Assembly: GCA_001724265.1 (NCBI GenBank)
Contig: MEDY01000175.1
Span: forward strand, 1 to 56,481
DNA length: 56,481 nt
Source of the DNA: Rhizaria sp. SCN 62-66
Lineage: Eukaryota
Direction of reading: 5' to 3'
Shown here piece by piece: positions 1 to 56,481 of this stretch. Positions within the stretch are counted from its first letter, which is position 1; each line of letters begins with the position of its first letter. The notes below the pieces were generated by a model. It was not told the DNA's origin and did no database searches. It worked only from the letters and a program-made list of their open reading frames with translations. The position numbers and the translations under genes are program-made.

Positions 1-1246
1 GAGCTGTCTGCTGCTACTCTGACTTTGATGCAGAAAATGGCAATCGAGAGTCTTCTTTTGAGCGCCAGGAGGTTGGCCGGCTTTGCGTTTCATAATAGTA
101 TTGTTATGACACTGCGTCTTAACAAGGCTGATGAGTATTAGATTCTGATTGAGACGCATGAGCACCTGTTTCCTTGCAGTGTTTCGCACTTTCTCATTTC
201 AGCAGTTGAATCGGGCATTGGCAGCAAGCTGCATACGTGCTTTGTGCCCTCGGCGCAGCGGCGCCGCTGCCTGCCGTTCGTCACACTCTGCTCGGGGAGT
301 TCGACGCTTTCCTGTGCTTCTGTGCCTTTGCAACTTCCCGAGAGCAATATTGTGTACGGCGAGTCCTGCGAGCTGACGACATACCCCGTCGGCACTGTGC
401 TGTTCTACCCCCCCTCAGTCCTCCCCGCCAGGTCCTCGTGCACGCCGTGGTTCATCGTTTACACGCCGTGTCCGGCGAGTCTGCTGGGCGGCGCCGTGCC
501 CATCGGCCGCGTGACGGTGTGCAGGAAGGTCGGTGACAAACCGAATTTCGGACCAATGCATGTCGGAAAACGGGCCAAAAAATAGCTCTTCGATGATAAT
601 GTCTTGAAATGCTTTGAGGCACGTTGTCACGCAAAGAAATGCAGCTCTGACTTTAACACTACTTCTTCTTCTTTATGTTGGCCTTATAATGTCGATTGCG
701 ATCGCTGCACATCGCTATCATAAACCGTTTATCAGAAAGAAACGATAAACGGTTTATTCTTTCTGTTGAAAATGATATGAATCCATCGTCCATGTGTCCC
801 CCATCACTATCCGACCTCATGCTATCTGTTCTCTCTATTTTTATCATACATGTACGGTTCTAGTAGTATATTTTTATTTGATTTTGGAAGTTTAATCACC
901 AATACAAGAGGTATGTCCTTGCGCGCTTTGAAACTGACAGATATTCGTATTTTCTTGTCTCAAAGTCATCGATATACTCCGCTAAGAATACGGGTTCCTG
1001 AAGACGCGACCCGGAAGCTGGTCGTATACTTGCGCAACAAGTGTTTTCCCCCGCCTACATGTCGCAACAAGCCGTGTCGCGGTATCACCGTCCTGGGACG
1101 CCTTTCCCGTTAACGTGCTCCGCCAGTGTGGCGTTGTTCCGCTGCTTCGTGAGCAGAAGTAGCAGGAACGCGCAAAAGTTTGGGGCAAGAAGTGGCAGCA
1201 GCAGCAGCAGTTGCAGCGGCGGCGGAGTAATGTCACTGTTCAGTGA
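1..1246 (+). CDS. 5'-truncated hypothetical multi-exon gene containing in-frame TAG codons (exon structure uncertain)
   Basis: Frame +1 is open from 1 to TAA 721-723 apart from TAG at 139-141 and 583-585. A probable intron 911-986 (GTATGT...TAAG) joins LITNTR to a terminal exon EYGFLKTR...REQK*QERAKVWGKKWQQQQQLQRRR, with TAG at 1160-1162 and TGA at 1244-1246. The link between the 1-720 and 850-910 segments is unresolved. No homology recognised. Confidence 0.45.
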
Positions 1247-1596
1247 GCTTACTGTCGCGACTGATTGTAGGGGAGGGGGTTGCGTTCAAGGCCCAAATAG
1301 TACTCCTTCTAACTAAAATAAAAAAAGGCCACCAAATAGTGGTCAGTTTCGTGGCTAGAACTCGGTAGTTTACACCGACCCTCTTGCACATCTTGACGAA
1401 GCCAGCCAGTGGTAGACGCAGAAACAGAACTCGTCAGATGATCCACCGACCACATGTGTGTTTCTATTACTGACTAAATGACTCACATTGGCCATCATTG
1501 ATAGAGATGTCTCACATGGTGACCAACGTCTCAATGTAACATCCATCCATCATGGGCTTGTTGTTGCGATCGTAAAATTTCATCTTGGATCTGACT

Positions 1597-4518
1597 TCAC
1601 GCGTTGTAGGGCTCGCTGCTCGCATCAACCTTGGCCACCAGTGCCGCGGCCTCCTCCGCGCTCAGCCGCGGGTACAGCTCGGCCAAGCACTCGGCGAGCG
1701 AGCTCTTCTCGGCCGGCCGTAGCTCCTTCTCGTAGCGGGCCAACTGCACCAAGAAGCCCTTGTTGGGCAACACCTGCTGGCGGCGGCCGCGCACCATCGC
1801 GACTGCGTGCAGGAGCGAGCAGTGGTAGGCGCGCATGGTGTACGCAATCAGCAGGGACGCGGAGCGGGAGACGCCCAGCTGGCAGTGAATCAGCACGGCG
1901 CCGTGGCCAGCGGTGCAGTTGCCCGCGGACGCCGAGCTTGTGGCGAGGGCGGAGTCGATGAAGGCAAAAGCCTTCTCGAGCTGCGGCCGCAAGGGGGCGT
2001 CGTCGACGTCGGCCAGGGACAGTTGAAGGTAAGTCAAGCCGGGGCCGCCGTCGGAAGCTAAACCGCCCGCGACGCTCTCGACCACAGTCCCCTTGACATC
2101 CGCATCTGCGTCAGCGACGCTGTCAGCAGGACTGTTGTTGTTGCCCGCGCTGGCGCTAGCGTTGGAGCTAGCAAGGACCAGGTGGTAGTTCGGCGTCTCT
2201 GCGCTGGCGTTGAGGACATGTGTGACCCCAAGTGCGCGCAGGTGCGCGAGGTTCGACGCGTCCGACTTGGAGCCCAGGAACACGGCCCCGTCGATGACCT
2301 CGCTGGGGTAGCCTGGGAACATTGGCGCGTGGCTATGAGCGGGCAGCGCCGCGACCATGTCGCCGCCGCCGGACATACCCGCGGTAGCAGCTGCACTGGC
2401 CGCGGCGCCGTTCGCACTGGCGCTGGCATTGGCGCTGGCGCTGGGGCTAGGGCGCAGGGTGGTGCTGGCGTTGATGCTGCGGGTGTTGCTGTTGCAGAGC
2501 AGGAAAGGGTACCGCTGCAGAAACGCGACAGCGCCCTCGGGCAGCACCTCGACTGCGGCGACCTTGCCCTCGACCAGCAGCAGCGCCGCCACGGCCTCCA
2601 CAATTGAGCCCTCCACACTACTGTCGCCGGCGCCACTACTGTCCGCGGCAGCAGCAGCAACAGCGGCAGCGGTAGCAGTGGGCTGGCCGCAGATGATGAC
2701 GACGCGGCGGCCGCGGAGACGCCAGACGCGCGCGTCGCTGGCAATTGCAATGCCGCCGGCGGCGCCCACGTTAACGCCGTTGCTGCTGGAGTCCCCAGAC
2801 GCAGCACTGGCGGGCTCGGCGGCGGCGGCGAGCGCGGCGGCGGCGGCGGCGGGGCCCTGGGCCGCGGCGGACTGCAACGCCTTGACCAGAGCCTCGCTAT
2901 CGTCATCAGCGCTGCTGCTGTTGCCACTGCAGTTAAAGGGGATGTTGACGGAGCGCGGGATGTGTCCCGCGGCATACTCCTTCCGTGGCCGCGTGTCGAT
3001 GACCAGGGGCGCGTTCTGCGCCCACAGCGCGTTGAACACGTCAGGGGCCAGCGCGCGGGTCGCCACTACCGCGTCAGGCACGGCTGCAGACACAGCAGCC
3101 GGCGCAGCGTCGGCCGCGGCCGCAGTCGGAGGCGAAGCGTTGGGCTCGGCCTCGGCCTCAGCGGTCGCAGTGGCCGCGGCCATGGCAGTGGCCGTGGCGG
3201 TGGCCGTGGCAGCGGCAGCGCGGAGGGTGCGGGCGGCGCGATGCTGGCGCAGACGCTCCTGGGCAGAGAGGCCCGACGACAAACGCACACCACCGCCCGC
3301 AGCAGCGCCAGCAGAGTTCGCTTGGTCGCTAGCATTATCACTGTCGCCGCTGCCGTTCGCGGCAGCACTCGCGTTGAGAGTGGTGTTTGCACTCGCGCTT
3401 GTCGCGTTATTGGTGTAGGCGTTGCGGCGGAGCGTGGCCTGCAGAGAGGCGGCCTGGACGCGGGCCTTGGCCACTCGTGCAGCGACAGCCTTGTCGTCAG
3501 CTGTCGGCTTGGTGGCCTCGGCCTCAGTTGTAGCGGCAGCGGCGGCGGCGGCAACGGCGGCGGTGGCGGCGGCGGCGTTGGTGGGCGTGAGGGTCAGCGG
3601 CGGGGCAGGGGGCAGGGCCACTAACAGGTCGTCGTCCTCATTGTTGTTGCTGTTGTTGTTGTTGTTGTTGTTGTTGTTGCTGCTGCTGCTGGCCGTGTCG
3701 CTCGCGTCGCTCATGTCAGTGAGAGACGAGGGCGAGGGCAAGTCAGGAGCCGCGGCGAGCGGGGAGAAGGCGAGGGAGAGCGACGCGGTGTCACTGTTGT
3801 CGTCGCCGTTGTTGTTACTGCCGTTGTTGCTGTTCAGAGTATTATTGTTGCTGTTCAGAGTATTGTTGTTGCTGTTGTTGGGGATTTTGAGCGCCGACAA
3901 GGGGGCCACGTGGGCGGCGTTTATGATGCCGCTGACACTGAGACTCACATCCAAGGCATCGTCGGCCTCAGCTTCAGCAGTGACAACCACACCAGCGCCC
4001 GTCGCATTGCCATTGGTGCTGCCATTGCCGTTGCCGTTGCCATTGCTGTTGCTCTTGCTGTTGCTCTTGCTGCCGCTCGTCACGGGGGAAGCTGGCGCAA
4101 GGGCGCGCACGACGACGGGCTGCATCAGCCGAGCACTGCCGCCGCTAGAGCTAACTGCAGCGCCGGGAGTCGCATTGGCCGCGGCATTGGCGTTAGCGGC
4201 AGAGCTTTTGTCCGCGTTGCCGTTATTGTTGTTGCCGCTGCGGTTGCTGCTGTCGGCAGAGCTGGTGCTGGGGGCTGCCTCTGCGACCTTGATGAGCTTG
4301 TGGCAGATGTCGCACACGCGCTGTGGGCTACGGTCTGCAACCACAGCGGGCGGCAGCACGGCGCAGCGACGCGAGCACTCGTCGCAGACGAGCTTGCCGC
4401 AGGCGCGGCAGTGGTGGCGGCGGCGGAGAAACCAAGTGAAGGGCTGCTCGCAGAGGACGCAGCCCGACGAGGAGGAGTCGGCCTGCCACAGCGGCGGCGC
4501 GGTGAACAGACTGGACAT
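1597..4518 (-). CDS. FYVE + rhodanese + dual-specificity phosphatase (MAPK-phosphatase-like), ~973 aa, single exon
   Basis: Likely ATG at 4518 (MSSLFTAPPLW). FYVE motifs WxxD, RRHHCRACG and RVC; rhodanese-like LVIDTRPRKEYAAGHIPRSVNIP; DSP motifs PSEVIDGAVFLGS, GVTHVLNA, catalytic IHCQLGVSRSA and PNKGFLVQL. Stop TGA. Confidence 0.9.
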   Translation of the reverse strand: MSSLFTAPPLWQADSSSSGCVLCEQPFTWFLRRRHHCRACGKLVCDECSRRCAVLPPAVVADRSPQRVCDICHKLIKVAEAAPSTSSADSSNRSGNNNNGNADKSSAANANAAANATPGAAVSSSGGSARLMQPVVVRALAPASPVTSGSKSNSKSNSNGNGNGNGSTNGNATGAGVVVTAEAEADDALDVSLSVSGIINAAHVAPLSALKIPNNSNNNTLNSNNNTLNSNNGSNNNGDDNSDTASLSLAFSPLAAAPDLPSPSSLTDMSDASDTASSSSNNNNNNNNNSNNNEDDDLLVALPPAPPLTLTPTNAAAATAAVAAAAAAATTEAEATKPTADDKAVAARVAKARVQAASLQATLRRNAYTNNATSASANTTLNASAAANGSGDSDNASDQANSAGAAAGGGVRLSSGLSAQERLRQHRAARTLRAAAATATATATAMAAATATAEAEAEPNASPPTAAAADAAPAAVSAAVPDAVVATRALAPDVFNALWAQNAPLVIDTRPRKEYAAGHIPRSVNIPFNCSGNSSSADDDSEALVKALQSAAAQGPAAAAAALAAAAEPASAASGDSSSNGVNVGAAGGIAIASDARVWRLRGRRVVIICGQPTATAAAVAAAAADSSGAGDSSVEGSIVEAVAALLLVEGKVAAVEVLPEGAVAFLQRYPFLLCNSNTRSINASTTLRPSPSASANASASANGAAASAAATAGMSGGGDMVAALPAHSHAPMFPGYPSEVIDGAVFLGSKSDASNLAHLRALGVTHVLNASAETPNYHLVLASSNASASAGNNNSPADSVADADADVKGTVVESVAGGLASDGGPGLTYLQLSLADVDDAPLRPQLEKAFAFIDSALATSSASAGNCTAGHGAVLIHCQLGVSRSASLLIAYTMRAYHCSLLHAVAMVRGRRQQVLPNKGFLVQLARYEKELRPAEKSSLAECLAELYPRLSAEEAAALVAKVDASSEPYNA

Positions 4519-4962
4519 CCGTCGCCACGCGCGCGCTGAACGTGGCGGGCGGTGGGGGGAAAGGGGGGAAGCAGGAGTGGATGAGGCCAGGGTGGGGCGG
4601 AGAGGGCGAAGGGTGGCATGCGCCGATGTTAAAATGGGTAGACTTTGAGTGGTATATTGTTTGTAGTTGAGTGAACATAAGTGAAAAATACACCTTGTCA
4701 ATCAAGCCTTCGAACTGCGCTGCTTTTGTGTCTATAGACGGAACGGTTAATGAATGATAACTCTGAGAATGGTGAGGTCGTATCTCTCTGTGGCTGGCCG
4801 CGTGCGTCGGGCGACGAGGACTGAGCCAGACTGAAACGAGATGCGACAACGATCTTTCCAACGTCAGATTCAAACGTAACGCTGCAGACGAACCTATCTC
4901 TAGATTTTAACTAAAGCCTGCTATTTATATCACCACAAGTGGTCGTTGACTCTCCCTGTGCG

Positions 4963-5603
4963 ATGGACCCATCACGGTCGGCCGGCTCTCGGTCAAGTAG
5001 GCCCAGCAGCAGTGAGCCCGAGAGCTTCCCTACACCTGGAACTGATGCAGCTGCTGATGTGCCCGCACGTACGTCCCCGCCACATCGCGAGTTTGCTGCC
5101 GTGGGCCTCTTTGACGATCACGACGACGGCGCTCTTCGCATCGCGATGGTACGTGACTGACACCTCCAGCACTATGCGTGCAAATGAAAATACCTTAACT
5201 AAGGCACCTATTCAGCATATTACTAATATAAATTGTTGTATTTTGCATATGTTGCGTGCTAATATTATTATAAAACGCCATCACTTAATCATAAACAGAC
5301 ATAGTATCACAATATCGAACAAAAGCTAGTTAACATTCTCTTACTTACGAACACGACCACTGCTTGCTTGCTTCGAACCTCTTGACTTGTGCTGTGCCAC
5401 GTGTGTGATATTTCGCGCAGTTCATGGACCACCAGCGGCGGATCAAGGAGGAGAAGGCTGCCGCCGTAGCAGCGGCACTGGCCTCGGCCTCTGGCTCTGG
5501 CTTGAGCCTTGCGACTGCGACGGCGAGTGCGACCGTCGTTGCGGCCCCCTCCTTAACCCACAACAAAGCTCAGAAGCACCATACGTTGCCCGCTAAGCTT
5601 TGA
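4963..5603 (+). CDS. Small two-exon hypothetical protein (~122 aa); exons 4963-5148 and 5421-5603
   Basis: ATG at 4963. Phase-0 AT-rich intron 5149-5420 (GTACGT...CGCAG) joins ...ALRIAM to FMDHQRRIKEEKAAAV.... Both exons are GC-rich. Stop TGA. Confidence 0.6.
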
Positions 5604-5725
5604 ATTGCACATATTTAGCACGAAACTACCTTCATTAATACACTAGCACTTCAACCGTTATCGTAATAACAACGCAAGCTATCTTCAAAGCATTCTGTCC
5701 GTTGGCTCATCTGCATTCAAGGCTC

Positions 5726-6573
5726 TTAGTTGCTGCCGCCGCTGAGCGTGATCGCCGGCGTCCCCGTGGCCGCGGCAACGGCCTCCAGCGCCCCCGCCGT
5801 GGCCCTCGCCTGCGCCAACGCGTCCTCCCAGCCGGCCTCGGCCTCACCGCGCGCGGCGGCGGCGACGGCGAGCGCACTGCGCAGCCGCGCCACCTCGAGC
5901 CGCTTGGCGGCCACGGCGGCCGCGCGCGGGGCCAGGTCAAGCCGGGATAGCGCGTCGCCGGCGGCGGCGAAGCCCGCGGCGTCCCCGCCACTCGCGGCGG
6001 CGGCAGCGGCAGCGTTGGAGGGAGATGTGCTAGCGGTGTTGTTGGTGCTGGTGATGGCGGCGGCTACAGCGTCAGCCGCGGCGGCGTCGTCCAGGGCCGT
6101 GAGGGCCTGAGCAAGACCGGATGAGGAGGCGGCGTTCTCGAACTCGAGCTGTTGGGAGCGGTCGATGATGAGGCAAAACATATTGAACAAAATTCGATCG
6201 TGAGAGAAAGTGAAATGAGATGTGAGCTGATGCTAACAGTAGATACCATACGACAATCTATCAAGACATGAAACACGCGCATCGTCAATGCCAGCATGAT
6301 ATGAATAGAATATGATGTGCCAAGCTAACGTACAAGGACGCCGTCACGGATCGCGGCCTGGTAGTAGCGGCCGACCTGGCGGAGGAAGATCTGCTGCCAC
6401 AACGTCGCCGCGGGGCCCTCCAGCTCGAACCCTTCGCTGAGGGCGTCGGCGGGGATCGCCTTAAATGCGCGGTCCAGCGCCTGGGTCAGGTACACCTCGA
6501 GCAGCTCTAGGCGGCGGTTGCGGGCGGGACCGAAGGCAGGGGCAGCATCAGCCGAGGCGGGTGTGAAGGACAT
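5726..6573 (-). CDS. Nnf1/PMF1-like kinetochore (MIS12 complex) subunit, ~220 aa; exons 6573-6334 and 6148-5726
   Basis: Phase-0 intron 6333-6149 (GTACGT...AACAG). The spliced protein RRLELLEVYLTQALDRAFK...RDGVL|LEFENAASSSGLAQALTALDD resembles the Nnf1 pattern (R...AL, EF...L..LD), followed by a coiled coil. Family call is by eye. Stop TAA. Confidence 0.6.
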
Positions 6574-7194
6574 TCTGTAGACCTTATAGAAGGGTTTTAG
6601 AGAGGTATATGTTCGCCCTTTGAAGTAAAACTAAAGTCTCCGATTTTAAAACAAAAACAGCATATGGATGAGATCAATAAAGATCGGGAATATGTGATCA
6701 AGATTGTGATATGTAAGGTGGGTTGGGGAGAGAGGCGCATGAGGAAACACAGTGGGGAAGTTTGCAGGAAGAACATAAATTCAAACGATATAAAAAGGAT
6801 GACACATAGTCATATCAAATTATTATTCGTGTAACAAATGGCAGTCTCTTTTACAGACAATACACAGAGATATAGGCTCATCAAGTGAACCTTATTTGAA
6901 CCAAGCAGATGACCGTTGGACGAGAGAAGGCGACTCAGCTGTTGGCCACAGCCGGTCGAAGTGACGACGACTTTGCCGCAATATTATGGCGCTGAAACAA
7001 AGTGATACATGTAATTAACACGATTTTGAATGTGTATATATGTAATCTGTTGTATAACTAAGTGCTATTTTCGTCCGGCCTGACTTTAAGTCGCAATCCT
7101 CTTTGGTGAAAGCTGCCATTTTCAAGTGACTTTGACGGTCAATAACATGTCGTTGTGAGTTCGTATTTGCTGTAGTCGCGGAAATATTGGTCGC

Positions 7195-7763
7195 TTACGA
7201 GCGCCCATGATTTAAATTGCGCGCTGGGCGCTTAAAGCGGGAGTTCGATCTCATACCGTCGGCCTCAGCAGCTTTCTGCTTCGTTTTGCGCTACGATTCT
7301 GCGATGACGTTCTGTTGCAGCTCGTCAATCTTCTTTAGCCCCTCCACAAACACTTTACAACAACGCAGTCAAAATTGGCACGCTCCTATCTTCTTAGTCT
7401 CTAGGTTGCATTATTTCGGCATCTCTTTGTGGCGTCTCATGACGACAGCTGTGTTCCACGGTAGGTACAACTTTGTGTGACATCGCATTAGGATTTGTCA
7501 ACATAAGCGCACACACGCAAACGTTGACGCGGAATAGCAAACTCGAGAGATAGCGGATAAGGGGGTGTTAATGACTGTGCGCGTACTACCAATGCAAGCG
7601 ACTGTGTGCTGGCAGAAACAGGAGGGCAGAGTGAAGTGACTGTGGGAGATTGGGTCAGAGGGGGCTGCTGGACGGCAACAAGATCAAGCGAAATCGTCAA
7701 GACATATCCGACCCATGGTTCCAGTGCAACCTTGTCGGCGTAATTCGAATACCAAACCTGCAT
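7195..7763 (-). CDS. Putative small gene; candidate terminal exon 7352-7195 with in-frame TAG (upstream exons uncertain)
   Basis: After TTTGAC...AAAG the frame reads FVEGLKKIDELQQNVIAES*RKTKQKAAEADGMRSNSRFKRPARNLNHGRS, with TAG at 7291-7293 and TAA at 7195-7197. Upstream ORF 7763-7488 contains a GTACGC donor, but I could not build a phase-consistent join. Confidence 0.35.
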
Positions 7764-8188
7764 TTTGTTCTATGCTGATCATCTTTTAATATTCTCTCTA
7801 TCGTTGTGAAAGTAAGGAATCTGATATGATGAACGTGACGCGTGAGGGAGCAATGAGAGGCCCTGCTCGGCTTGAACATTGCCCTCAATTGTTCATGTTA
7901 GTCCCCCCTGTTTATACTCATTCAAGTCATGTTTCTCACCGTTTCCAAGTTGTTTGCATCCGTTAATTGCACTAGTCTGCTATACCGCAAAGATAATCAT
8001 GCTTTATCCTCACTTTCTCCATCATCGGCACCATCACACAGTGTCCAGACCCGCTTAACTTTGCCCCACTTGAACATACTCTCACTTGCCATTCTTTCTT
8101 ATGCGCGTGTTATTCTTCTTGCGTATGCCACGTTCATCTTTGTGTCCCTTAAGGGTTGTCCCTGTTTCCCGCAGCAACCCCGCCCAGA

Positions 8189-10164
8189 ATGTCCGACTCC
8201 GCTCTGGACCTCGCCGCCTCATCCCTCGGTAGTCTGGGCCCCCTCGCCCAGTCCCTCCCTTCGGTGCTGCCCGCTTCCCTTTCCGCGCTGCCCTCCGCGC
8301 TCACTGAGGCCGTGCACACGTTGCGCCCCGTTGCCATGCGCGCCTGCGTTCGCCTCGCCCACGCCATTTCGCCCCCCGAGATCACCTCCTCCGCGGCAGC
8401 GGCCTAGTGGGCGGCTCTCACAGGCCACGCCGACGCCAGCGACGCCGCGACACCCTTCGTGACGGCGACGCACTTCTGCGACAGCCTCTCGCGCTTTTCC
8501 GCCTTTGACAGCGTCGACTCGCCGCTGGCCTTCCCGGCCCCGGTGCAGACTCTGCGCGCGCTCGTCACTCTGGCCGCCTTCGCGGTCACGGTCGCGGTGG
8601 CGGTGTATGTGCTCGTGCACGTGCTCTTCCTCCGCAAGCGCAAGGCCGGTACGTATCTGCTCGATGTGGCAACGTACAACGACTTCCGCCCCGAGTGGAC
8701 CGTTAGCGCGGAGGAGTGGGCGTCGCGCGCGCAGAGCTGGTTCAACATGGATCCTGAGGACATCCAGTTCAGCCGCACCATCCTCGAGCGCAGCGGCATC
8801 GGAAACCGCACTGTACGTTACTTATTTAGAAGATACTAGACTCATATTGCTTTGAACTACTCTACTTAGCGGCGTTGGCTAATTTCTATTTGATTGGAGC
8901 TTAAAGGAGCCCCATTTGACTCGTATCTCACACGTTCACTTTGCTTTCTTCCTTCCACACGCCACACAGCACTTTCCCCCTGGCATCGCCATGTTCCCTC
9001 CCGACCTGTCGATTGCAAGCGCGCGCTACGAGGCCGAGCTCGTGATGTTCAACTGCGTTGACCAGCTGCTCAAGCGCAACAACGTGCACCCCAAGGATGT
9101 CGACATCCTCGTCGTCAACTGCTCTCTGTTCAATCCCACGCCCTCACTTGCGGCTATGATCATCAACAACTACGGCATGCGCGAGGACATCATGTGTTAC
9201 AACCTCTCCGGCATGGGCTGCTCGGCCTCGCCCATTGCGGTTGATCTGGCTTCACAGATGCTCCAGGTCTCCAAGAAGCGCGATCCCGTGGCGATCGTTG
9301 TGTCGATGGAGAACATCACGCAGAACATCTACCTCGGTCGCGAGCGCGCCATGATGGTCGCCAATTCGCTCTTCCGCATGGGCGGCGCCGCTGTCATGCT
9401 GACCAAGCACGCGCACGCCGCCAAGGGTCGCCCCGCCGCGGGCTGGAAGCTCAACGAGCTCGTGCGCGTCCACATGGCGGCCAACACCAACGCGTACACG
9501 TGCGTCTTTCAGGTAAGTGTTCTCTCTTCTTTAAGTTAAATTCAAACGTTATAGTCATGATTACATAAGCATGTGTCTATATTCGGAATCTACATTTTAA
9601 TTTCAATAGTATTTGTGAATTTTGATTTTCATAGTGATCTCACAGCCACACATCTTATTGTTTCACTTCTCTCGCATGCAGGACGTCGACAAGGAGACCA
9701 AACCTGGCGTCCGTCTCGACAAGTCGCTCATGAAGGTTGCCGCGCAGGCGCTAACCCGCAACATGACCATCCTGGGCCCACGCATCCTGCCCTGGCACGA
9801 GAAGGCGCGCTACGGAGTGCTCACAGCGCTGCGCCTGTTCAAGGTCTGGCGCAACCCTGCGCTCGCGGCCTCGCTGCCGCCTGTCGTGCCGAACTTCAAG
9901 TCGGCGGTGCAGCATATCTGCATCCACGCGGGCGGCCGCGCCGTCATTGACGCCATCCAGAAGGCGTTGTCGCTCTCAGACGCGGATGTGAAACCCTCGC
10001 GCGACGTGCTTTATAAGTATGGCAACACCAGCTCCAGCTCCATCTGGTACGAGTTCGCAAACATTCTCGAGAACCGCAAGCCCCAGGTCGGAGACAAGGT
10101 CTGGCAGATTGCGTTTGGCAGCGGCTTTAAGTGCAACTCTGCCGTGTGGGAGCGCATTGCTTAA
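8189..10164 (+). CDS. KCS: FAE1/KCS-type 3-ketoacyl-CoA synthase (very-long-chain fatty acid elongation), ~549 aa if TAG 8405 is read as sense; exons 8189-8812, 8970-9512, 9682-10164
   Basis: N-terminal TM helix followed by YLLD; ILERSGIG; DILVVNCSLFNPTPSL; catalytic NLSGMGCSAS; LFRMGGAA; HICIHAGGRAVID; GNTSSSSIWYE; QIAFGSGFKCNSAVW. Two phase-0 GT-AG introns (8813-8969, 9513-9681). Stop TAA. Confidence 0.95.
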
Positions 10165-11413
10165 GTCAAGCTGTGCTTGAAGCTAGGCCGCCACAGGTTG
10201 CTGTGACACTGAGCTGCCAGCCTAGGATGTTGTAAGCAATGCTTGCTCCCAAATGTTTGGTAACGGTATCGTGTCACAAGTGGCTTAACCAAACGTCTGT
10301 ATCAGCAGAAGCATCTCAACAAGTAAAGTCTCTGTCCCAAGTCTAGTCAGTATGTTTGAGTTTTGTGCTTTCTGCGTTTTGTACATTTGTTTTTGTTTTT
10401 GTTTTGCTTATGTCATAATTGTTTGGTCCGGCTTTTGAGTTCAAGTCGTCGCATCCGCAGAGTAATCATGGCATGGTGCTTGTTAGTGCTCTTGATGCGA
10501 CTGTCACTTACTATTTCCTTGAAATCAACTAACGTAACAAAGAAACTACTGAATGTGAAAACAAGATGAAGAAAAAAGATGCTAGTTTCCTAACTGCGGT
10601 TGCCAATGACGTCTTATCACTTATTTGGTCAATCGACAATAACAAAACAAATACCTCAGCCGCCGCCGCCGCGCATGGCATGCTAGTGTTAGTTTGCAAG
10701 CCGCCTTTACTGACAACATCGCCGCCAGCAACACTAACAGTCTCGCATGCATTGTCACTCTGCCGCCGCCGCTGCTTTCTATGTGTTTCTCTCTCAATGT
10801 GTATGTTCACCATCGTTTTTATGTGACTTGCAGTCACATTTACACTCCATTACTGCACTTGCATGTTTTGCCCCCCTCCGTCAGAAGCCTCTGGCGCCGC
10901 GCCCCGCGTCGCAGCGTAGCGCGGCGGGCATTATGTGTGATCGCAGCTATGCAAATGACAACATCTCACGAACATCCTGCTATTGACAAGTGTATTTACT
11001 GAGACCGTCTCTGAGAACGAATTAGGGGCACTGTCTCGGTACCTGATCTCGCACGCAGCCTCGCAAGCGAGAGACACGAATCGTGATTATTCAGCTACAT
11101 CAACATCTGTTCACGAATAAACAACACTCTTCAACCTCATTCTTGGTCGATAAGTGACTACGATAATTGGGTAATAGAACAAAAACTGATAACGCAGAGT
11201 CTATTGGTCTGCGTTTGATCATAGGTTTAAACACATGTTTTTGAAATCATTTTAAAACCAACAAAGAAATAGAATACGTCAGCGCGTATGATAACTGTAC
11301 AAACAAACAATACCACGCCTTTAAACTACTTGAACGTATACACTGATCCTACGACAACGAGACCAAGCTAATCATATCACTGCTTGTCTCTTGCACTCAA
11401 GAGTCACCCAGAC

Positions 11414-14400: not shown

Positions 14401-15612
14401 TGTTTGTGATGACGCCTGTGTCAGAAGCGGTGCTGCTGGCGGTGGCATTGTGCGCCGCGAGCAGCGTCTGCGCGTACAGCTCGCGCACGGGGTCGCTGCG
14501 AGCCGCGTGCGACTGCTGCTGCTGCTGCTGTTGCGCATGAGTCAACGACGGCGACGGCGACGACGAGGGCTGCGGCTGCTGCTGCAGCGCCGCAACGGGC
14601 ACGGCGAACACCTCCTCCGGTTTGGACCAGTCCCCGGGCGTGACGGGGCGCGAGGTGTACAGCGACAGGCGGCACATCAGCGCCACGGGCGAAGACGGCA
14701 GCGCCGCCGCAGCCGGGGACGCGTCGGCCTCACTGTCCTGACCCTGTCCGCCGGCGTGGGGGGCGCTGTCACGGCTGGGCTCGTCGGCGTCCGTGGCGTC
14801 CTCGCCCTCAAGGTCATGCGTACCGGCAGCGGCGGACCCAGGTGTTCCAGCAGAGGAGCCCTGCGTACTCGCGGCGTGGTGCGCGGCCGCGGCGGCGGCG
14901 ACAGCGGCGGCGTTGGCTTTGGCGCTCGAGTCCTTAGCAGAGTTGGAATTACTCGTAGCGTTGCTGTTGCTGTTGTTAGTGCTGGTGGTGATGCGGAAGG
15001 CGTCGGACGCCTGGCGGAACAGGTTACCGAACGCACTGCGGGTCTTTGAACCCGCGCCCGTAATCGTATTGTTCGCGTAAGAGCCAGAGCCAGAGCCAGT
15101 TGCGCTAGCGCCGCTGCTGTGCGCGACGGAGACGGGCACGTACGTCGCCGTAAACACCGCGTAGCGCGCTGATCGCCACGGTTTGACCACGTTGCCCTTC
15201 TTGTGCAAGTACCCCTCGAGCGAAAGGGTCGATGGCCCGACAGTGAGCAGCGCCTCGGAGATGCCGGCGACGCTGGTGCTGCTGCCTGCACTGACGGCCG
15301 CCAGACACGGCGCCACGGCCGCCTGGTAGGGGCCGCGCCAGCACAACGGCACTGGCGCGCCGAACGCGGGCGGGCCCGAGACGCCCCACGTGCTGCCGCT
15401 GGCGCTCGCGCCCGCGCCGGTCGTACCAATGACCGTACCCGTGACTGCAGCGTTGCCGGTGCCGCTGGCGCCGGCGCCGGAGAGGGAGCGGCCTGAACGC
15501 GTGTTGTTGGCACTGGCACTGGCACCGGCGCTGGCACCGGCGCTGGGGGGGCGGGGACTGGCGCACGGGGTGGCCACAGCCAAGCCAGGCTTAGTGTTGG
15601 TGTGAATGGAGC

Positions 15613-15646
<34 letters not shown>

Positions 15647-16066
15647 ATTGTGGTGGCTCGGGGGCGGCAGCGGAGGGGGGAACGAAGGGGAGCCGGGCTT
15701 GGATGATGACAGCATCGGCGACTCCGACTGCGACGGCGACTCGGTTGACGCCACGTTGTTGCCGTTGCTATGCTGTGAGAGCAACGACGAAGGGTTCATA
15801 AGCGGCGATGCGAGGGTTGTGAAGGGCAGTGCGCCGTCGATGCTCTCGTCGTGTTCGTCAATCTCGGTGTTGTCAACAGCACTGGCGTCGCCACCGTCAG
15901 TGTTTCCCGCAGTCTCATCGTCGTCGTCAGCATCATCGTTGGCAATGTCGCCGTCGCCGGTCGCAGTAGCGCTGCTGTCCCGAGGGGACTTGCCTTCAAC
16001 GGCGTCGCCGCCGGCACCGACACTCGCGGCCGCGCTGGCTTCACCGGCGGCGTTGTTGCTGCTGCT

Positions 16067-16097
<31 letters not shown>

Positions 16098-45700: not shown

Positions 45701-48700
45701 TGGCCAGTGCGTTACTATCCTTGTTGGCACCCGCGACCGTGACGCGTCCGCGCATGTGGAAGCTGACTGCGAGCCGCTGGAGCGTGCAGACGGCGCAGAA
45801 GGGCGTCTTGCCACTGGCGGCGAGCGCGGCGGCGGCAGCAGCGCTGTGGCCCTGGCAGCGCACGCAGCGGTGCGCGTGCCGGTCGCCGCCCAGCTCCGCG
45901 ACAGCCGCGGAGAGCGGGTCTCCGAAGGCCACGGCGGCCAGCGCGGCCGCAGCGTCAGCGTCGGACACAGTCATCTCGCCACGGGTGCTCGCTGTCACAC
46001 TACTTGAGTGACTCGAGTTGGCGAGGATGAAGGGCCGCGCCGTGAGCGCCGCAGCGGGGGCGGCCGGCGCGTACTGACCCAGGTAGGCCGCCACCGCCGC
46101 CTCGGCCGCGGAGGCGCCGTCGGCGGGCGCCAACGGCACGGGCGTCGGCGCGGGCGCGGCGCCGTTGGCCGCGGCCGTGGGGGCCTTGGAGCCGGGCACG
46201 GTGGTCAGCGGGGCTGAGCCGCCGCTGCTGGCGGCCAGGAGCGAGCGGGCGAGCGCGGCGCAGTCGTCGGCCACGGCCACGCGGCGCAGCGCCAGCACGG
46301 CCACTGGCGACGCCGCTGACCGGGCGGCCGCGGTGCCGGCCGCATTGGCGGTGGCGTCGTCGACCATAGAAGAGGGGCGGGGGGCCCACAGCGGGTGCAG
46401 CGGGTGCGTGGGGGCGAGCCGCGACACGAGTCCGTCGCCGCGGTTGAGCGCCGCGGCCACCGAGGGGTCCTTATGGTGGGGGAAGAAGGCCATACCGGCG
46501 TTGTGAGCGGTGACCGTGAGCGTGGGCCGGCCGCCGCCCGGCGTCGCAACGGGCGCGACAGGGTGGGCCGGGTGGTTCGGCGGCCGCGGCAGCGCGTGTG
46601 GCGGTGGTACCTGCACCCTGGCCTCGGCCACAGACCGCTCCCACACGCGGGTCGCGGCGATGGCGCGGAGGCGAGTCAGCGCGTTACTCACGACGATGTG
46701 CTGGCCGGACCGCCAGAGTGTCAGCAGGACCGAAAAAAGGGCCTGCGGGGACTCAGTCGCAGCGCTACTGTTCACAAGAGGCAGCGTGTTGGTGACGGGC
46801 GGCACTGAGGGGCCCTTGCGCGAAGGGGCGTTCTCAGCGGCACTGAGCAAAGACTCAAGCACTTGCACCGAGTGCGCCAGAGTCGCATCCTCGTTCTCAT
46901 CATCGCCATCGTCGCTGTCCATTGCCTTGTGACTGCCAGCGCTAGCACTCGTACTCGCGCTCGCAGCAAGCGGTAGGTGGAGTGACTGCCCGCGGCGGGC
47001 GAGGCGGCGGCCAAACAGCTGTGCCAACGACTCGATGCGACTCGCACCGGCAGAGAGAGCACCGCCGGTGACAGCAGCCGGGGCACTTACACTGCCACCC
47101 TTAGCCGACGCAGAGGAGGCACTTAGACTGGCGGGATCGACGCCCGCGAGCTTGAGCGTCTCCTCTGAGGCGGTGAGACAGAGCCATTGCGCCAGCAGGG
47201 GGATGTGCATCATGACTTGCAGCGCCGAGTTGAGGAAGCACGTGTTGCCCAGGTTGGCCAGCCCGGGGGTTGGCTTCAAGGCAGCGGCTGTCACCCCGCC
47301 AGCTCGACCGGACGCGGCCGCCGCCACCGCCGTCTTGACCGCCTTGGCGGAGTCGGCTGCGATCTCGGCACTCTTGGAGGCCAGCACGGCGGCGGCCGCG
47401 GACTGCTTCTTGCTCTTCTTCTTAGCACCGCTATTTCCGTCAATACCGTCTTGCTCCTGCTCCAACTGCTGCTGCTGCTGTTGCTGCTGGAGTTCTTTGA
47501 GCTTCTTGCGCTCGCCAGAGAGTTCGGCCTCGATCTCGGCCTTGACCGCTGCGCCATAGATGGCCTCCTGCTCCGGCCAGTGCAGCAGCAGCGCGGGCAG
47601 GCGGTCGGGCACGCAGGTCGCGTGTAAGGGCGACGGGTAAGGGTAGTCGTCGCCGTAGATAAGCCGCACCGCGCTGCGCGCCACACGCAGCACCAGCAGT
47701 TCCAGCGCGTCGACGGGCACCGCACCCGCCAGCACCGACGGCTGCTGCTGCTGCGTCGCGTCAGCCTCGGCCTCGCCTGCAGTGATGGACTCGGGGTCGG
47801 CCGGTGCAGTCTTGTTGCTCAGCTTGCCCTTCTTCGCGCTGCTAGCGCTGCTGTTAGAGGCAGCGAGCACCGCGTTGGCGAGCGCCTGGGACAAACCGGC
47901 AACGGTGCGGATGTTCGCGGCATTTGCAGCGGCAGCGTTGGCATTCGTGCCATTGGTGTTGTTGTTGGAGGCAAGTGTTTGAATCGCTGTGAGGACCCGT
48001 GCCAGAGCGCGCTTGCGGGCGGGGTCTAAGGGCCTCGCCTTGGCCCCCTTAGACGCCTCACCGCCATTGTCACGGCGCGACTGCGTGTTGAGCCCGTATG
48101 CAAGCGCAGACAGCTCAGCCAACACGGCCATAGCGTCGACTTTAACGCCCCCGCCCGCGGCGCCTGCGGTGCCGTTGGACAGCAGAGAGTCGCCGGCGCC
48201 GGCTGCGCGCAGTAGCGCACCGAAGGAGGACGACGCGACGGCGGCCACGCTGCCGGCGGCGGCCGCGGCGGCCGAGGCGGACCAGCGCGGGTCGTAGCCG
48301 TAGACCTTGGCCAACGCGAGGTTATCCAGCGGGTCGCTGTACTTGTTTGTGTTAAGGGTTACCAAATTGAAGGAGCCGTCCTCGGGCCGCGCGGGTTTCA
48401 GCGACCGAGGATCGCGGGCAGGCGTAAAGCCGACGCGGCGGGTCAGCACGCCCTGCGCCTCGCCCGCCAGGTGCGCGACGAGCGACGCCGCAGTGACGCC
48501 GCCCCTGCCGCCGTTCAGAGGGTTGGAGTTTGAGCTCCCGTCTCCCGCGGAAGCGCCTGAGTCTGACTTGGCCTCTGAGCCGCGGCGGCTTGACTTTGCA
48601 TAGTGCGGGGTCAGCGTCACACCGTCGCGCGGGTCGTGCTCCTGTGCGTCGCCGTCGTCGTCGCCGTCTGCCATGGCGCGGGGGCCGGAGAGCGGATCCG

Positions 48701-49013
48701 TGTCGTCGTCGAATGACGCGCGGGAGGCGCGGATGCGGGCCTCCACGTCAGCGTACGCGTCGGCCGCGGCGCCCGTGGCGGCGGAGGCCGCAACGGAGGC
48801 CGATGAGTTGCTGCGGGCGGCAAAAACGGCCGAGATGACGTTCGTGGACGCGGCGGCGGCAGCCTTGTCCTTCTTCTTGGACGAGACATGGGCCGATGCT
48901 GAGGCAGCGCCCTGCTTGTTAGGGGTTTGTGCGGGGTGCACAGTGGCAGAGCCGCCAACAAAGCCCTTGTTGTGCTTCTTCGTCACACCGATGTGATGCG
49001 CGTTGAAGGACAT
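39745..49013 (-). CDS. USP36: USP36/USP42-like (nucleolar) ubiquitin-specific protease, ~3039 aa; exons 49013-45623 and 45473-39745
   Basis: GLANLGNTCFLNSALQ; FCAVCTLQ; the intron 45622-45474 splice creates FGDQEDAHE; GGVLRSQIRCSVC; FLDLS; YRCARC; LTIHLKRF; YRLCGLVVHHGSMGNGHYY; AYVLVYEK. Acidic tract and C-terminal DEYDSALDAGRLKKV resemble the USP36-family tail. Stop TAA. Confidence 0.88.
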
Positions 49014-50644: not shown

Positions 50645-50866
50645 AACACAGATGCAATCAAATAGTAACGCCAAGTACATGGAGGGGCTGTCAAGCCATC
50701 TGTGAGTGCCGCGACTTAAGTGAACATACATACTTTACAAATATTTTTTTATTTAGACGAACAGTTATAACAGTGAATACAAACAATGAACCTGAATACA
50801 ATACGAATTCACGGCGACAGCGGCAAATCAATGCGTGCAAAGCTTGAGAACGTCAGGAGCCGGTCT

Positions 50867-53800
50867 TTAGTCAGTCGGCGATGAAGCAGGATTCGTGGCG
50901 AAATAGGTCGAATAGAAACCATTAAAGTCGAGCCGTGTCAGCAGGTCACTCCAGTCGCCCACAGCTGCATTGTTGCCGCCGCCGCTGCTAGCGCTGCCCG
51001 TCGCCGTGGCCGCAGTGGCCGCCTCGGTCTCTGCCGCTAGCAGGGCAACGAAGGCGCGCAGTCGGTCGTCGAAGGACGTGGAGAACTTGTTGATCATAAG
51101 CGCAAAGTGCGGGTGCGAGACCACGCCCGACGCGCGCGCCGTACGCTCGGCCACCTTGAGCGCGCGCGCGCGGCCGCAAAGAACACCCGAAGCGGTCCCC
51201 GCGCCGCCCGCGGTTGCGCCGCCAGAGCCGGCGCCGTCGCCTTGCTGCAGCTGCGAGAGTACCGCGTCTGCGGGCGAGGCGTCGACCGAGGCGGCGAGGC
51301 GGCGCGCGTTGTCGGCAAAGAGCAGGCAGTAGGTGAGCACCTTGACCAGCACGGCGAGCAGCCGCGGGTGCGTGAGCATGCAGGCGTGCAGCGCGCCGTC
51401 GAGGAAGCCCGAGTGCAGCCGAACCACCTCGTCGACGGTCGAGGCGATGGCGACGCGCGCCGCCATCGCCTGCCATGCCGGCTCCAGCGCGGTGTGCGCA
51501 AGGTAAGTCGACAGCGAGGTGACCAGGTGCAGCATGCGGTGCCGCAGAGTGTTGGCGGCGGCGAGTGCACGCTCCAGAGAGGCGGACTTGAATGTCTGCA
51601 GCGACGCGAATGCGGCGCCGAGCCTGCGCTGCACGTGCCGCACGAACACTAAGTGCCGGAACAACAGCTGATACTTAGTCAGCGAGCGGCGTGAGAACAC
51701 GAGGTTGAGCGGCCAGTCGACGCGCATAGTGAGAGCAAGCACGTCCAGGCCGCGCAGCGCGTTGCCCGCAGAGCCTGCGGCGGCGGCTTGCCGCTGCTGC
51801 TGCTGCTGCTGCTGTTGTCCAGTCGCCGCAGAGCTATTGACAGCGGCGCCCGCGGCGGCGGCGGCGATCGCGCCGGTGGGCTGCAGGTAGCACACGATCT
51901 GGTCCCTGTAGGGGTCCTTGCCGGCGCCAGTTGTGCGAACCGCGTCTTCCCACAGGGCGTCGAGCTTCGCGGCTGACACCGCCGCGGCGGGCAGCGCGAG
52001 TTCGGCCCCCGCAAGGTCGAGGAAGCGCGAGGCCAGGTCGCCGTAGCCGAGTAGGAAGAAGCCGCGCGCCGAGGCCAGCCGGCCCGCCAAGTCCAGGCCC
52101 CGGGGCGCGGGGGACCGGCACAAAGACAGTGCGGCTGTCGCGGCGGCAGCGTGCGCGGCGCCGATCGCCGCGGCGAGGATGTGCGGCTGCTCCAGTACGA
52201 GGCGCGGGTTCCGGGCCAGTGTGCTGAGCGCAATTTGGTGTAAGCTGCCACTCTGGCCGTGCGAGGTGCTCACATCGGCGTCCAAGTAAGGCACCAACGC
52301 GGTCGCGCCGGAGCCTGCGCTATTAGTCAGGCCGCCGTCGTTGATGGACGAATGCAGCCGCAGGACGCCCCAGTGCCGGCCCGCTAAAAGAAGCATCTCT
52401 GCGTGCGGCCGCAGGAACAACGGCACCTCAGACAGCGGCCCCGCGTCGTCCTCGCCGCCGTCCTCCTCCGCAGCGGCCGCGGCCAGCGCGGCGCCCGCGG
52501 CGGCGGTGTCGGCGGCGGCGGGCGCGCGGTGCGCGTACCGCTGGTGCCAGTATGCCTCGCCCAGGTCCTGAGCGACGCGGTCGCCACCCCAGTCTGCCGT
52601 GGACACGATGTGGAACTCGTCCCACGCGTCGCCCTCCAAGTCCGCGTGGCAAGCCCACGCCGCAGTCAGCGCCAAGTACGGCGCGGCGGCGGCGGCCCAC
52701 AGCGCGGCCCAGTCGTCGCGCGCCGCCGCGTCGCCCGCGCGGAGCAGCGCGCGGTGGACGAGGGTCAGCAGGTGCGCGCCCCGGCCGCGGCGGCCGCGGG
52801 AGAGCGCCGCCGTGAGCAGCCAGCGCACCCGGGCCCAGCGCGCGGCCGCGGGGCGCGTCGCGTGCCACAACTGCAGCAGCGAGAGGCCGCGCGGGGCCTG
52901 TAACGCAGCTTCCAGCCGGGCGATGAGCAGCGCATGGCCGCGGTGCCAACGCGCGATCGCCGAGCAGAGCGACGTCCACACGGAACCGGCGCCGGCGGGA
53001 CGTCCCGCGGCGGCCGCAGTCGTCACTGCGGCGGCGAAGGCGGCGTCGCGGCACAGCGGCAACACGCGCGACACCGTGTCGGCGAACGCGGGGGGGAGCA
53101 CGGCGGCCGCAGCGGGCGCGAGGTCTAGGCGGGTGGCCGCGGCGGCGGCGGTCAAGGAGTCCCAGCCAAGCGCGGCTGCCACGGGCAGCCCGGTGTCGGT
53201 GATCATGTTGCTCGCGCCCGCAGCGGCGGCGGAGGCACTCGCAGTGGCGGAGGCTGCCGAGTCCGCGGGGACGGCGACGATGAAGCGCGAAGGCAGCCCC
53301 TCGAGCGCGGAGAGCAGGTCGTCGCACAACACGGCCTCCTGCTGCTGCGGGGGCAGCGCGCCCAGCACTGACGCCGCGGCGGGCGCGGCCGGGGACGCGA
53401 GCGCGGGCAGGCAGCCGCGCGCCGTGAGGGCGGACACGGCGCCGGGACCCAGCAGCGAGGCCGCAAGCGGCGGCGGCAGCGGGCGCGCGGCGTCGGCGGC
53501 CGTCACCGGCGCCGGGGACGGGCGCGCGGTCAACACGCAGGCGCGCGCGCGGGAGCCTCCGGCGGGCGTCGTGGCCGCCGTGGCCGCCGGCGCCAGCACC
53601 CACTGCGCGCAGTCTGTGGCCAGGGCGGCGGGGGCGATGGCGGCGATGGTGGCCACGGGGGCGGGGCGGCCGGTGAGGGCGGAGATGGGGCCCGCGGTGA
53701 CGGTGAGCCACAGGCCAGAGGCGGTGTGCTGCAGCCACACAGGGGCGCCCGCGGAGATAGAGTGGCCGTAGGGTGCAGAGTGGTGGCCATGAGAGGCCGA

Positions 53801-54896
53801 GTGGTGACCGTGAGCAACGACGCCGCCAGGAGTACTCGCAGTGAGGTGTTGCAGAGGGTCGACGACGGTCCAAGCAGCGGATTTAATGTCAGCCGCGTCA
53901 CTACTCTCAACACTCGTGTTCGGGTTAACATTGCCGGAAAGCGACGAAATGACTGTGAGGGCATTGTTCGAGTTATTGCTGTTGGAGACGGCCAGCAGCG
54001 CAGGGGTGCCAAGGGCGGCGATGAACACGGTGGCTCCGTGGCGCAGCACAGACGCAGTCGCCGCACTGCCACTCACGCCGGCCACAAGCTGCTGCTGCTG
54101 TTGCTGTTGCTGCTGCTGCTGATGCGACTGCGACTGGGTCGGGTTGGGGTGAGGCGCAGGGACGAATGCGAAACCACAGAAGGCGCTCCGAGTGCGGCTT
54201 GACTTCGGTGCGCCACTGACGCCGTACAGCTGTTGCTGCTGCTGCCGGTACAGCGCCATCGCAGCGCCGTTGTCACGGTTGCTGCTGGCGCTGCTGCTGT
54301 CCTGAGCTTGCGGGAGCGTGATGGCGGCGCCGGCGCGGGGACGCTCGCAGTCGCTGCCCACGGTCGCCAGTCCCGCGCTCACGGTCACATTTGCGCCCGC
54401 CCCGTCCGCTGCGGCGCCCGCACTGGCGTTGCCGAGGTTGGCGCTGCCGCACTCGGTGAAGACGGAGAGGAAGAGCTCGGTCGCCGGGGCGGCGGCAGCG
54501 GCGGCCGCGGCGGCGGTGTTGGCCGTGGCCGTGGCCGCGGAGACAGCGAAGCCGAGGCGTTCCGTTGCACTCAACGCCGCGGCGGCGGCGGAGGACGCGG
54601 CGGCCGGCACGGGCGGCGCGGTGAAGGGCAGCGCTGAAAGCACGGCGTCGAAGAGACCGGCACCGCTGTCTGCGGCTGCGGCGTTAGTATGGGAGAAGGC
54701 GGGGGCGGCGGGCAGGTGCAGTGGCGGCGGGTGCGGCTGCAGGAACAGGGGCGCGCCCGTCAGAGTCGAGGCGAGGCCCCAGGGAGAGACGACGGGCGCG
54801 GGCTGAGGCTGCTGCTGCTGCTGACGGTGATACTGCGCGGAAGAAGGCGTATTCGCATGAGGATAAGACTGGGTGTGTCCATGGGGCAGCAAGTTA

Positions 54897-54948
<52 letters not shown>

Positions 54949-55702
54949 ATGAGCGATAGAGGTTGTGCGCACTGGCAGAGCTGGCAGTCGGCAACGCAGC
55001 CCCGCTGGCAGTGACAGCAGTCGCGAGTGGGGCAGCCACATGTACAGCGTTGACCTGACTAGTGTTCGTCGTGGTCATTGCAGCCGAGGCAGCGGCGTCG
55101 TTGGTTTTGATGTACGTGGGATGGTAGTTGGCGTAGTCGCTGGCCGTTGCCGTCGGCAGCGGCGCAGCAGCGGCAGGACCAGCGGACGACAACGACGCGG
55201 ACGACGACGAGGACGACGTAGATGCAATGTAGGCGCGATGGTTCACAGAAGTAGCAGGAGCAGGAGCAGGGGCAGGGGCAGGGGCAGGAGCTGTGCTTGT
55301 GACAGGAACACGAGAGGGCGCAACACCACTAGCTAGCGCGGGCGGTGCGGCGTAGTGACGCGGCAGTGCAGGTGCAGCCGCGCTTGAGCTCACAGGAGCA
55401 CCTGCAGCAGGAACAGAAGCTACTGAAGCGGGGGCAGGAGCAGGGACGTAGGTAGCCTCAGAGTTCTGCGTTACAGAGTGTTGAACAGGTGCAAAAGACG
55501 CGGGCGCAGCACCAATGTTGGCCGACTGACCGGTAGCGCGCGGAGGGGAAGCCACGGCGGGGCCTGCGGCCGCGTTCTTGGCGGCGAGTGAGGCGTTGAT
55601 GTTGCTCAGCGTGGCGCGGTATGCGGCGACGGCCGAGGAGAACGACGCTGTGCTCGGGGCGGGGGCGCCGGGCGCGGGGTTAGAGGCCCCGGGGTCAGAC
55701 AT
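50867..55702 (-). CDS. TUBGCP2: Gamma-tubulin complex component 2 (Spc97/GCP2), ~1611 aa if TAG 54947 is read as sense
   Basis: EAVLCDDLLSALEG; DAWDEFHI; YWHQRY; VPLFL...LLAGRHWGVLR; FFLLGYGD; GLDVLALTMRVDWPLNLVFSRRSLTKYQLLFRHL. ORFs 55702-54947 and 54892-50867 are in the same frame, separated only by one TAG. Stop TAA. Confidence 0.88.
54899..54946 (-). repeat. (CAG)16 coding microsatellite (poly-Gln)
   Basis: 48 nt of perfect CTG repeats on the + strand, immediately preceded on the coding strand by TAG. Confidence 0.95.
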
Positions 55703-56312
55703 CTGTGCAAAGACTTAACAGACTGAAACAAAGTTACTGTGATGACTGGGAACGCTGGGAAGTCATGTGAAGAGAACAGAGAAGGCGGGAGCACGAGGTG
55801 AGAACGAGAAGATAACTTGTAGGCAATATACATCAGGATACCTGCTACAATTTAAATATAACAAATGATGCATCGATTATATTCACAGAAAGTCCTCCGA
55901 AATTTAGAATGACGAGTATGCATGATGATTTATTGATTCCTAGCTTGCCTCTCTTGTGCGACTTCGAACGGGCCACAACCCCCACCCTCGCGCCACCACA
56001 GCGTAGCAAACAAATCGGACGATACGACTAAAGGAAGATATTCACGGCATGAACAAAGTCAAATGAACGCAAAACTGAAGTATATCATACTTGAAGATGA
56101 ATAATAAATGTGTGTATGTATCTGTGTTGACCGAAGCCGCACAAACAGTGATTCCCTAGCGTGATCAACGTTGTGTTACACCGTCCGTCAGTCACACATG
56201 AATAAATATCTCTCTTTTACTTTATATAAAAAATACAGTACAAGTTACATATTAGAGTCGTAACCTCAAGCTATCAAAACAACACATATGCTCTATGCGG
56301 CGACTGAGTGGC

Positions 56313-56481
56313 TTAGAGCTTGGCGTTGAGGCGCTGCGGGTTGGGCTTGGGGAGCTTGGTCTTGTGCTCGAGGAGCATGTCATTGTCCGGGGGCAGGCCG
56401 GCGCAGGCGGAGAGGATGTTGGTGACCATGCGCTGCTGCTTGGCGAGCGCGTTGACGACGGGCGTGCCGGGCATGACCATG
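56313..56481 (-). CDS. INO1: myo-inositol-1-phosphate synthase, C-terminal end (runs off the window)
   Basis: My translation is [40 protein letters not shown]...AKL-TAA, matching the conserved MIPS C-terminus pattern [12 protein letters not shown]...ENI.RAC.GL.P.N.M.LE.K. It is not in the ORF track (<60 aa). Confidence 0.92.

Follow-up and report, generated by a model that had tools for sequence, protein, structure and literature searches.

We analysed the meaning of the codon UAG in a 56,481-base window of DNA, positions 1–56,481 of contig MEDY01000175.1, which carries the genes of a eukaryote. Two of these genes, encoding a 3-ketoacyl-CoA synthase of the FAE1 type (KCS) and a protein similar to gamma-tubulin complex component 2 (GCP2), are each interrupted by a single in-frame TAG. 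Since both TAGs stand in coding-type sequence, no intron of the local type removes them, no alternative start bypasses them and no gene in the window terminates with TAG, the pattern is that of a stop-to-sense change confined to UAG. Our best reading is that UAG is translated rather than terminating in this organism; we give it about an even chance, and one window is not proof. The fuller proposal is put forward tentatively: UAG would have been reassigned, probably to Gln, with UAA and UGA kept as stops, at a very early stage of low usage, in a wastewater eukaryote whose best named relatives are, for one gene, fungal. The contig can be ascribed to an uncultured eukaryote because its segment 7500–10500 recurs in wastewater and bioreactor metagenome runs. 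Runs from bioreactors, wastewater and activated sludge contained this segment wholly or partly (15 rows, 10 studies), and words sampled from it were present at 0.70–0.99 in runs X1–X4.

To count stop codons, we used 12 gene models built from lists of open reading frames (ORFs), Pfam matches and splice sites; the length was divisible by three in all 12. Their 14,631 sense codons contained no internal TAA and no internal TGA, as the original prediction had claimed for the recognisable genes, and two internal TAGs. These TAGs were carried by two of the 12 genes, which corresponds to 0.17 per gene, or about 0.1 per 1,000 codons. Eight of the genes ended with TAA and four with TGA, a partial gene at the 3' end of the window included; a tally of terminal stops had been proposed as a check, and within the window TAG accounted for none of the 12. 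TAG makes up 20–30% of eukaryotic terminators, and at such an assumed share the probability of finding none in 12 is 0.07 to 0.014. Two further TAGs were intronic, one at 6325 lying directly 3' of a GTACGT donor and one at 49568 forming an acceptor. Ambiguous codes of the Condylostoma or Blastocrithidia type are recognised by in-frame UAA and/or UGA as well, and in the window both counts were zero.

Seven positions had been predicted at which TAG interrupts a gene: 139, 583, 1160, 7291, 8405, 38256 and 54947. The letters are present at all seven, reading CTA on the plus strand at the minus-strand sites. Interruption of a gene was borne out at 8405, in KCS, and at 54947, in GCP2; the sites at 139, 583, 1160, 7291 and 38256 lie in low-GC non-coding DNA to which no family could be assigned. 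What is left of the proposed UAG-only sense code is therefore two genomic in-frame TAGs with coding flanks, together with the 12 terminators that lack TAG, while five of the seven sites and the low usage do not support it.

The KCS gene extends from 8189 to 10164 on the plus strand. It consists of three exons (8189–8812, 8970–9512 and 9682–10164) with 549 codons and is terminated by TAA at 10162. The TAG is codon 73, at 8405–8407, and is the sole internal stop. The Pfam family FAE1_CUT1_RppA covers residues 149–208 in exon 1, and coding scores of the individual exons were 0.57–0.76 bits/codon. For reference, true coding windows scored 0.56 ± 0.19 bits/codon and the other five frames −0.63 ± 0.49, with a 99th percentile of 0.29. 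The 72 codons from the ATG to the TAG scored 0.57 bits/codon, with a GC content at third codon positions (GC3) of 0.83, and the 135 codons past the TAG in the same frame scored 0.58 bits/codon with a GC3 of 0.87. In the 216 nucleotides (nt) 5' of the ATG, GC was 0.48 and the scores were negative in all three frames. The 113 codons that follow the TAG contain no ATG in frame; the next one, at 8748, lies within the FAE1 domain and past the only transmembrane (hydrophobic) helix.

Both TAGs could in principle be absent from the mature messages, as errors of assembly or sequencing, as part of an unrecognised intron, or through RNA editing. We regard this as highly improbable, and in the case of KCS it is largely refuted. 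A search for in-frame introns of the form GT[AG][ACT]G[TC]..AG spanning the KCS TAG gave no candidates. Contigs of four runs were then compared with positions 1–20000 of the window, a range with the KCS TAG inside and the GCP2 TAG outside. Contigs of four runs from three studies bridged the KCS TAG with no other letters: X2 record 4 (6640–8652), X4 record 12 (8052–9128), X5 record 18 (8164–8540) and X7 record 29 (8320–8596), the last from a polyA metatranscriptome. No rows with other letters at 8405–8407 were listed among the contigs of these four runs. X4 record 12 represents DNA, because intron 1 is included in it.

We read X5 as spliced cDNA, because two of its records end at exon ends and because of a contrast in depth. 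Record 19 (487 letters) aligned over 8538–8812 only, stopping precisely where exon 1 ends and leaving 212 letters unaligned, and the alignment of record 20 (418 letters) reached no further than 9509, at the end of exon 2; the depth of the run was 0.06 over 7338–8004 and 6.55 over 8005–8671. The alignment tool labelled X5 'probably DNA', DNA can occur in RNA libraries, and exon joints of X5 were absent among the 15 entries shown of 527. A check of RNA across a TAG, which had been suggested originally, thus found the KCS TAG retained in the RNA-labelled contigs of X5 and X7, both colinear with the window over it. In the public protein collection, gene-caller fragments beginning just past the TAG (P0122 and P0250, the same except for the first letter) come from 2 and 7 contigs, and a search with exon 1 returned only the gene's own fragment and no uninterrupted form.

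A separate observation concerns exon 3 of KCS. Between 9711 and 9741, contigs of X2 differ from the window at five sites, all five at third codon positions, which suggests that the same sample contains a KCS paralogue, or a close relative of the gene, that is under purifying selection.

The GCP2 gene has one exon with 1,611 codons on the minus strand (50867–55702), starting with ATG at 55702 and terminated by TAA at 50867. Codon 252, at 54949–54947, is TAG, again the sole internal stop, and is directly followed by (CAG)16 at 54946–54899. Pfam assigned GCP_N_terminal to residues 862–1121 and GCP_C_terminal to residues 1209–1601. GC falls from about 0.65 in the gene to 0.41 directly 5' of the ATG. 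The 251 codons from the ATG to the TAG scored 0.28 bits/codon and contained no stops, versus 7 and 5 in the other frames; the 251 codons past the TAG scored 0.42 bits/codon, with a GC3 of 0.83 and again no stops, versus 4 and 3. The first in-frame ATG past the TAG lies 229 codons downstream.

An artefact is easier to imagine in GCP2 than in KCS, as the TAG adjoins a 48-nt CAG repeat and falls outside the range checked with contigs. Even so, the fragment that follows the TAG is on record from five contigs, as P0001, which starts 18 codons past it. A search of the public protein collection with the N-terminus of GCP2 returned this fragment only, and no longer, uninterrupted form. In-frame intron candidates that span the TAG were at least 447 nt long, with a GC of 0.63–0.64 and the donor GTGAGC. 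They are unlike all eight real introns of the window, which are very uniform, being 105–185 nt long with a GC of 0.31–0.55, and have the donors GTACGT (six), GTACGC (one) and GTAAGT (one).

The public gene calls restart past both TAGs at TTG or GTG codons (P0001, P0122 and P0250). Because these calls are cut at both TAGs, the deposited proteins would be truncated if TAG is a sense codon. Genuine non-AUG initiation past the TAGs was considered and is unlikely: a scanning ribosome would encounter the upstream ATGs, which are well placed, before it reached such a start. Recoding of the pyrrolysine or selenocysteine type was set aside on general grounds.

Leaky or programmed read-through would be another way to obtain full-length products. 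With a standard or ambiguous code, UAG would then terminate elsewhere, a near-cognate tRNA would read it at the two sites, and a mixture of short and full-length proteins would result. The rarity of in-frame TAG fits such a tolerated, inefficient event, and the base after the GCP2 stop is C (TAG CAG); C directly after a stop favours read-through. The two contexts differ, however, being TAG TGG GCG in KCS and TAG CAG CAG in GCP2, and share no stimulatory context. Moreover, known programmed read-through extends C-termini, whereas the stops considered here are at codons 73 and 252, ahead of essential domains. With UAG still in use as a terminator, the lack of TAG at all 12 gene ends also speaks against this explanation, which we judge improbable.

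Several findings weigh against the translation of UAG. TAG is extremely rare, accounting for two of 14,631 codons. Used as freely as a synonym of CAG, it should appear about 63 times, an estimate obtained by scaling the 367 CAG codons with the TTG/CTG ratio (94/547). The number of in-frame UAGs per gene is more than ten times below that of known UAG-reassigned lineages, at 0.17 versus 1.6–5.4 (PMC5304391). The absence of TAG from 12 terminators is weak evidence from a small sample and is suggestive only. Both TAGs are N-terminal, in unconserved, low-complexity sequence, and neither falls into a Pfam-aligned column; it had indeed been anticipated that none lies at a conserved alignable residue. 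Protein searches with both genes found no homologue that covers either TAG site, and the comparison of contigs over 1–20000 covers the TAG of KCS only, that of GCP2 being outside. ARAGORN detected no tRNA genes in the window, and eRF1 is not among its 12 gene models. Finally, the likeliest nonsense mutation at the border of a CAG run is likewise CAG to TAG.

In the main rival explanation, the code is standard and both TAGs arose as nonsense mutations that became fixed; KCS would be inactive, and a start further downstream, ahead of the conserved domains, would yield small amounts of GCP2. In GCP2 the mutation would be CAG to TAG at the edge of the CAG repeat. We consider this account to be on the unlikely side, but a serious rival. 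It agrees with the scarcity of TAG and with the N-terminal location of both TAGs in unconserved sequence, and most single-base routes to a stop do lead to TAG (367 CAG, 454 GAG, 381 AAG, 212 TAC and 125 TGG codons). Contigs sampled over 1–20000, outside 100–640, showed only 0–3 letter differences per 1–2 kb between strains, and a nonsense allele could be fixed because the population is nearly clonal. GCP2 also has its in-frame ATG 229 codons past the TAG, with some 380 codons still to come before the GCP_N domain. On the other hand, two of 12 neighbouring genes would have been hit while the others, the longest of which has 3,609 codons, are undamaged and free of frameshifts, TAA and TGA. GCP2 belongs to the gamma-tubulin complex, and this complex is normally indispensable. 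KCS has full codon bias in all its exons and is present in RNA contigs; in addition, purifying selection in its family is indicated because all five differences of the variant contig are at third codon positions. Fixed nonsense mutations would also leave the lack of TAG terminators unexplained.

Returning to UAG as a sense codon, KCS would be translated from the ATG at 8189 through the TAG at 8405, and GCP2 from the ATG at 55702 through the TAG at 54947. The most likely mechanism, as we infer it, is that UAG would be decoded through a tRNA whose anticodon is CUA and which derives from tRNA-Gln(CUG), and that eRF1 would recognise UAG poorly; UAA and UGA would be the only remaining stops. The near absence of TAG from coding sequence would place the change at a stage that is early or badly tolerated. 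If UAG is sense, then either it has become so recently, or its decoding is inefficient and selection still acts against it. Gln as its meaning is only hinted at; the sole reason to favour it is that a single transition separates TAG(CAG)16 from (CAG)17. Two Gln contexts had been put forward; TAG(CAG)16 is indeed in coding sequence, in GCP2, and remains the single repeat context for this assignment, whereas the second, CAG AAG TAG CAG at 1160, is non-coding.

To our knowledge, nuclear codes in which UAG alone was reassigned occur in very few lineages; their pattern is that of NCBI table 15. They bear on the question why a change in the meaning of UAA is usually coupled to one of UAG. If confirmed, the present case would join this small class of nuclear codes as a new lineage at an unusually early stage. 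It would represent early codon capture, in which UAG no longer terminates yet has hardly spread as a sense codon. Such stages have been predicted and, as far as we know, rarely observed. Because several studies of reactors and wastewater yielded data in which the organism recurs, the proposal is directly testable with existing data.

In-frame UAG as the only internal stop, combined with UAA and UGA terminators, is the pattern that established the cases of Iotanema spirale and the rhizarian exLh (PMC5304391). UAG of Iotanema spirale (Fornicata) encodes Gln, with 204 in-frame UAGs in 126 genes (1.6 per gene), terminators UAA 104 and UGA 15, and a T32G change in eRF1 (PMC5304391). The window resembles Iotanema in having UAG as the only in-frame stop, UAA-dominant UAA/UGA terminators and the proposed meaning Gln with a tRNA-Gln(CUA). 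It differs in that Iotanema has many UAGs at conserved Gln columns, whereas the window has two in 12 genes, none of them at a conserved position; the lineage is also another one. In exLh, UAG encodes Leu, with 384 UAGs in 71 genes (5.4 per gene) and terminators UAA 56 and UGA 15 (PMC5304391). Like the organism studied here, exLh is an uncultured eukaryote known from sequence alone, with a change of UAG only and with UAA and UGA as terminators. The difference is its meaning Leu, while the only context hint in the window is for Gln.

Phyllopharyngean ciliates have reportedly undergone independent UAG reassignments (PMC11687900), and are similar in that UAG changed alone. In contrast to these ciliates, the window has a GC content of 64%, long ORFs, GTACGT introns 105–185 nt in length and, for Pet127, fungi as the best named relatives. 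Amoebophrya sp. ex Karlodinium veneficum is a non-ciliate that uses in-frame stops as sense codons; all three stops are reportedly affected there (PMC6394959), unlike in the window.

Public protein collections include a sister species. Its Pet127, P0003, is encoded on a contig of 11,979 nt and is 73% identical to that of the window; its GCP2, P0123, comes from a contig of 6,380 nt, is 63% identical and, as a predicted protein, starts only at residue 686 of the window GCP2. In a HMMER search with GCP2 residues 1–1200, P0123 was the only close match among 128 hits, with 63% identity over query residues 686–1198. Among the best 120 matches of Pet127, all those with a named organism were fungal, at 40% identity or less. 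A fungal affinity is only a lead, because Pet127 is mostly a fungal family; in the Atlas, Ascomycota is the commonest phylum for the Pet127 family and Streptophyta for the FAE1 family. Should the affinity hold, the proposed reassignment would be the first of a stop codon in the nuclear genome of a relative of fungi. A literature search, with supplements outside its scope, found no report that a eukaryote related to fungi or living in wastewater has reassigned UAG.

Scanning metagenome contigs with P0003 gave three loci, which were rejected as informative relatives. L001 was only 35% identical, and L002 and L003 were fragments of 1.4–1.8 kb with about 50% GC and introns, containing no informative in-frame TAG or terminator. 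Relatives of GCP2 were not found in the scan of metagenome contigs, and Pet127 scans of genome contigs and viral contigs also found nothing.

The five remaining TAGs showed none of the coding signals seen in KCS and GCP2. An open frame on the plus strand at 1–723 is broken only by the TAGs at 139 and 583, and it is unsupported as a gene. We found that frame 1–720 scored 0.03 bits/codon with a GC3 of 0.61 and had no Pfam family above the cut-off, and word depth over 1–667 was 0.23 and 0.49 in two RNA-labelled runs. The same region is variable, the contigs of X2 and X4 showing 28 listed differences from the window within 100–631. Because of these differences, a diverged, multi-copy element is suggested at 100–640, which may alternatively be a place where a second strain becomes visible, and only there.

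The TAG at 1160–1162 (plus strand) is located in unassigned DNA downstream of a FYVE/rhodanese/dual-specificity phosphatase gene (FYVE-DSP), and its flanking frames are 58 and 27 codons long. The TAG at 38256–38258 (minus strand) is located between two divergent genes, that of a CAF1B/HIR1-like WD40 protein, which starts at 37251 on the minus strand, and PHF5A, which starts at 38584 on the plus strand. At both sites the TAG-permitting ORFs were outside the 25 best-scoring of 118 non-model ORFs, with less than −0.18 bits/codon. No Pfam families were obtained for the ORFs neighbouring 1160, nor for 37713–38411 read with TAG as Gln. The TAG at 7291–7293 (minus strand) is intergenic, upstream of KCS. 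The ORF that results when TAG is permitted there, 7198–7368, has 57 codons and 0.02 bits/codon; it is bounded by TAA/TGA, and other stops lie near 7291.

Apart from KCS and GCP2, the models comprise ten genes. FYVE-DSP is terminated by TGA at 1597, a gene of 220 codons by TAA at 5726, that of a VASt-domain protein by TAA at 11414 and Pet127 by TGA at 19889. A USP-A deubiquitinase of 3,609 codons occupies 20647–31476 on the minus strand and ends with TAA at 20647; the CAF1B/HIR1-like gene ends with TGA at 32400. The gene ending with TGA at 39030 is one that we take to be PHF5A, recognised from its sequence without a Pfam run. It is followed by a USP-B deubiquitinase of 3,039 codons at 39745–49013 on the minus strand (TAA at 39745), a UBC-type E2 gene (TAA at 50642) and, at the 3' end of the window, the partial gene (TAA at 56313).

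GC varies between 0.49 and 0.75 per 2 kb along the window. Coding sequence forms GC-rich islands between low-GC spacers, and its GC3 is 0.85, as measured on 12,552 training codons. No Rfam family matched anywhere in the window at gathering scores, and a search of the window for dispersed repeats returned only low-complexity GCN and CAG repeats. Low-complexity tracts of Ala, Gln, Asn and Ser are very common in the proteins of the window, for example in FYVE-DSP, GCP2, CAF1B/HIR1 and USP-B. The motif ATGTC[CT], encoding Met-Ser, was present at six of 11 starts, including those at 8189, 55702, 6573, 4518, 49013 and 49429. The sole coding-like ORF outside the 12 models is on the plus strand at 5409–5600, downstream of the 220-codon gene, with 64 codons and a score of 0.38 bits/codon.

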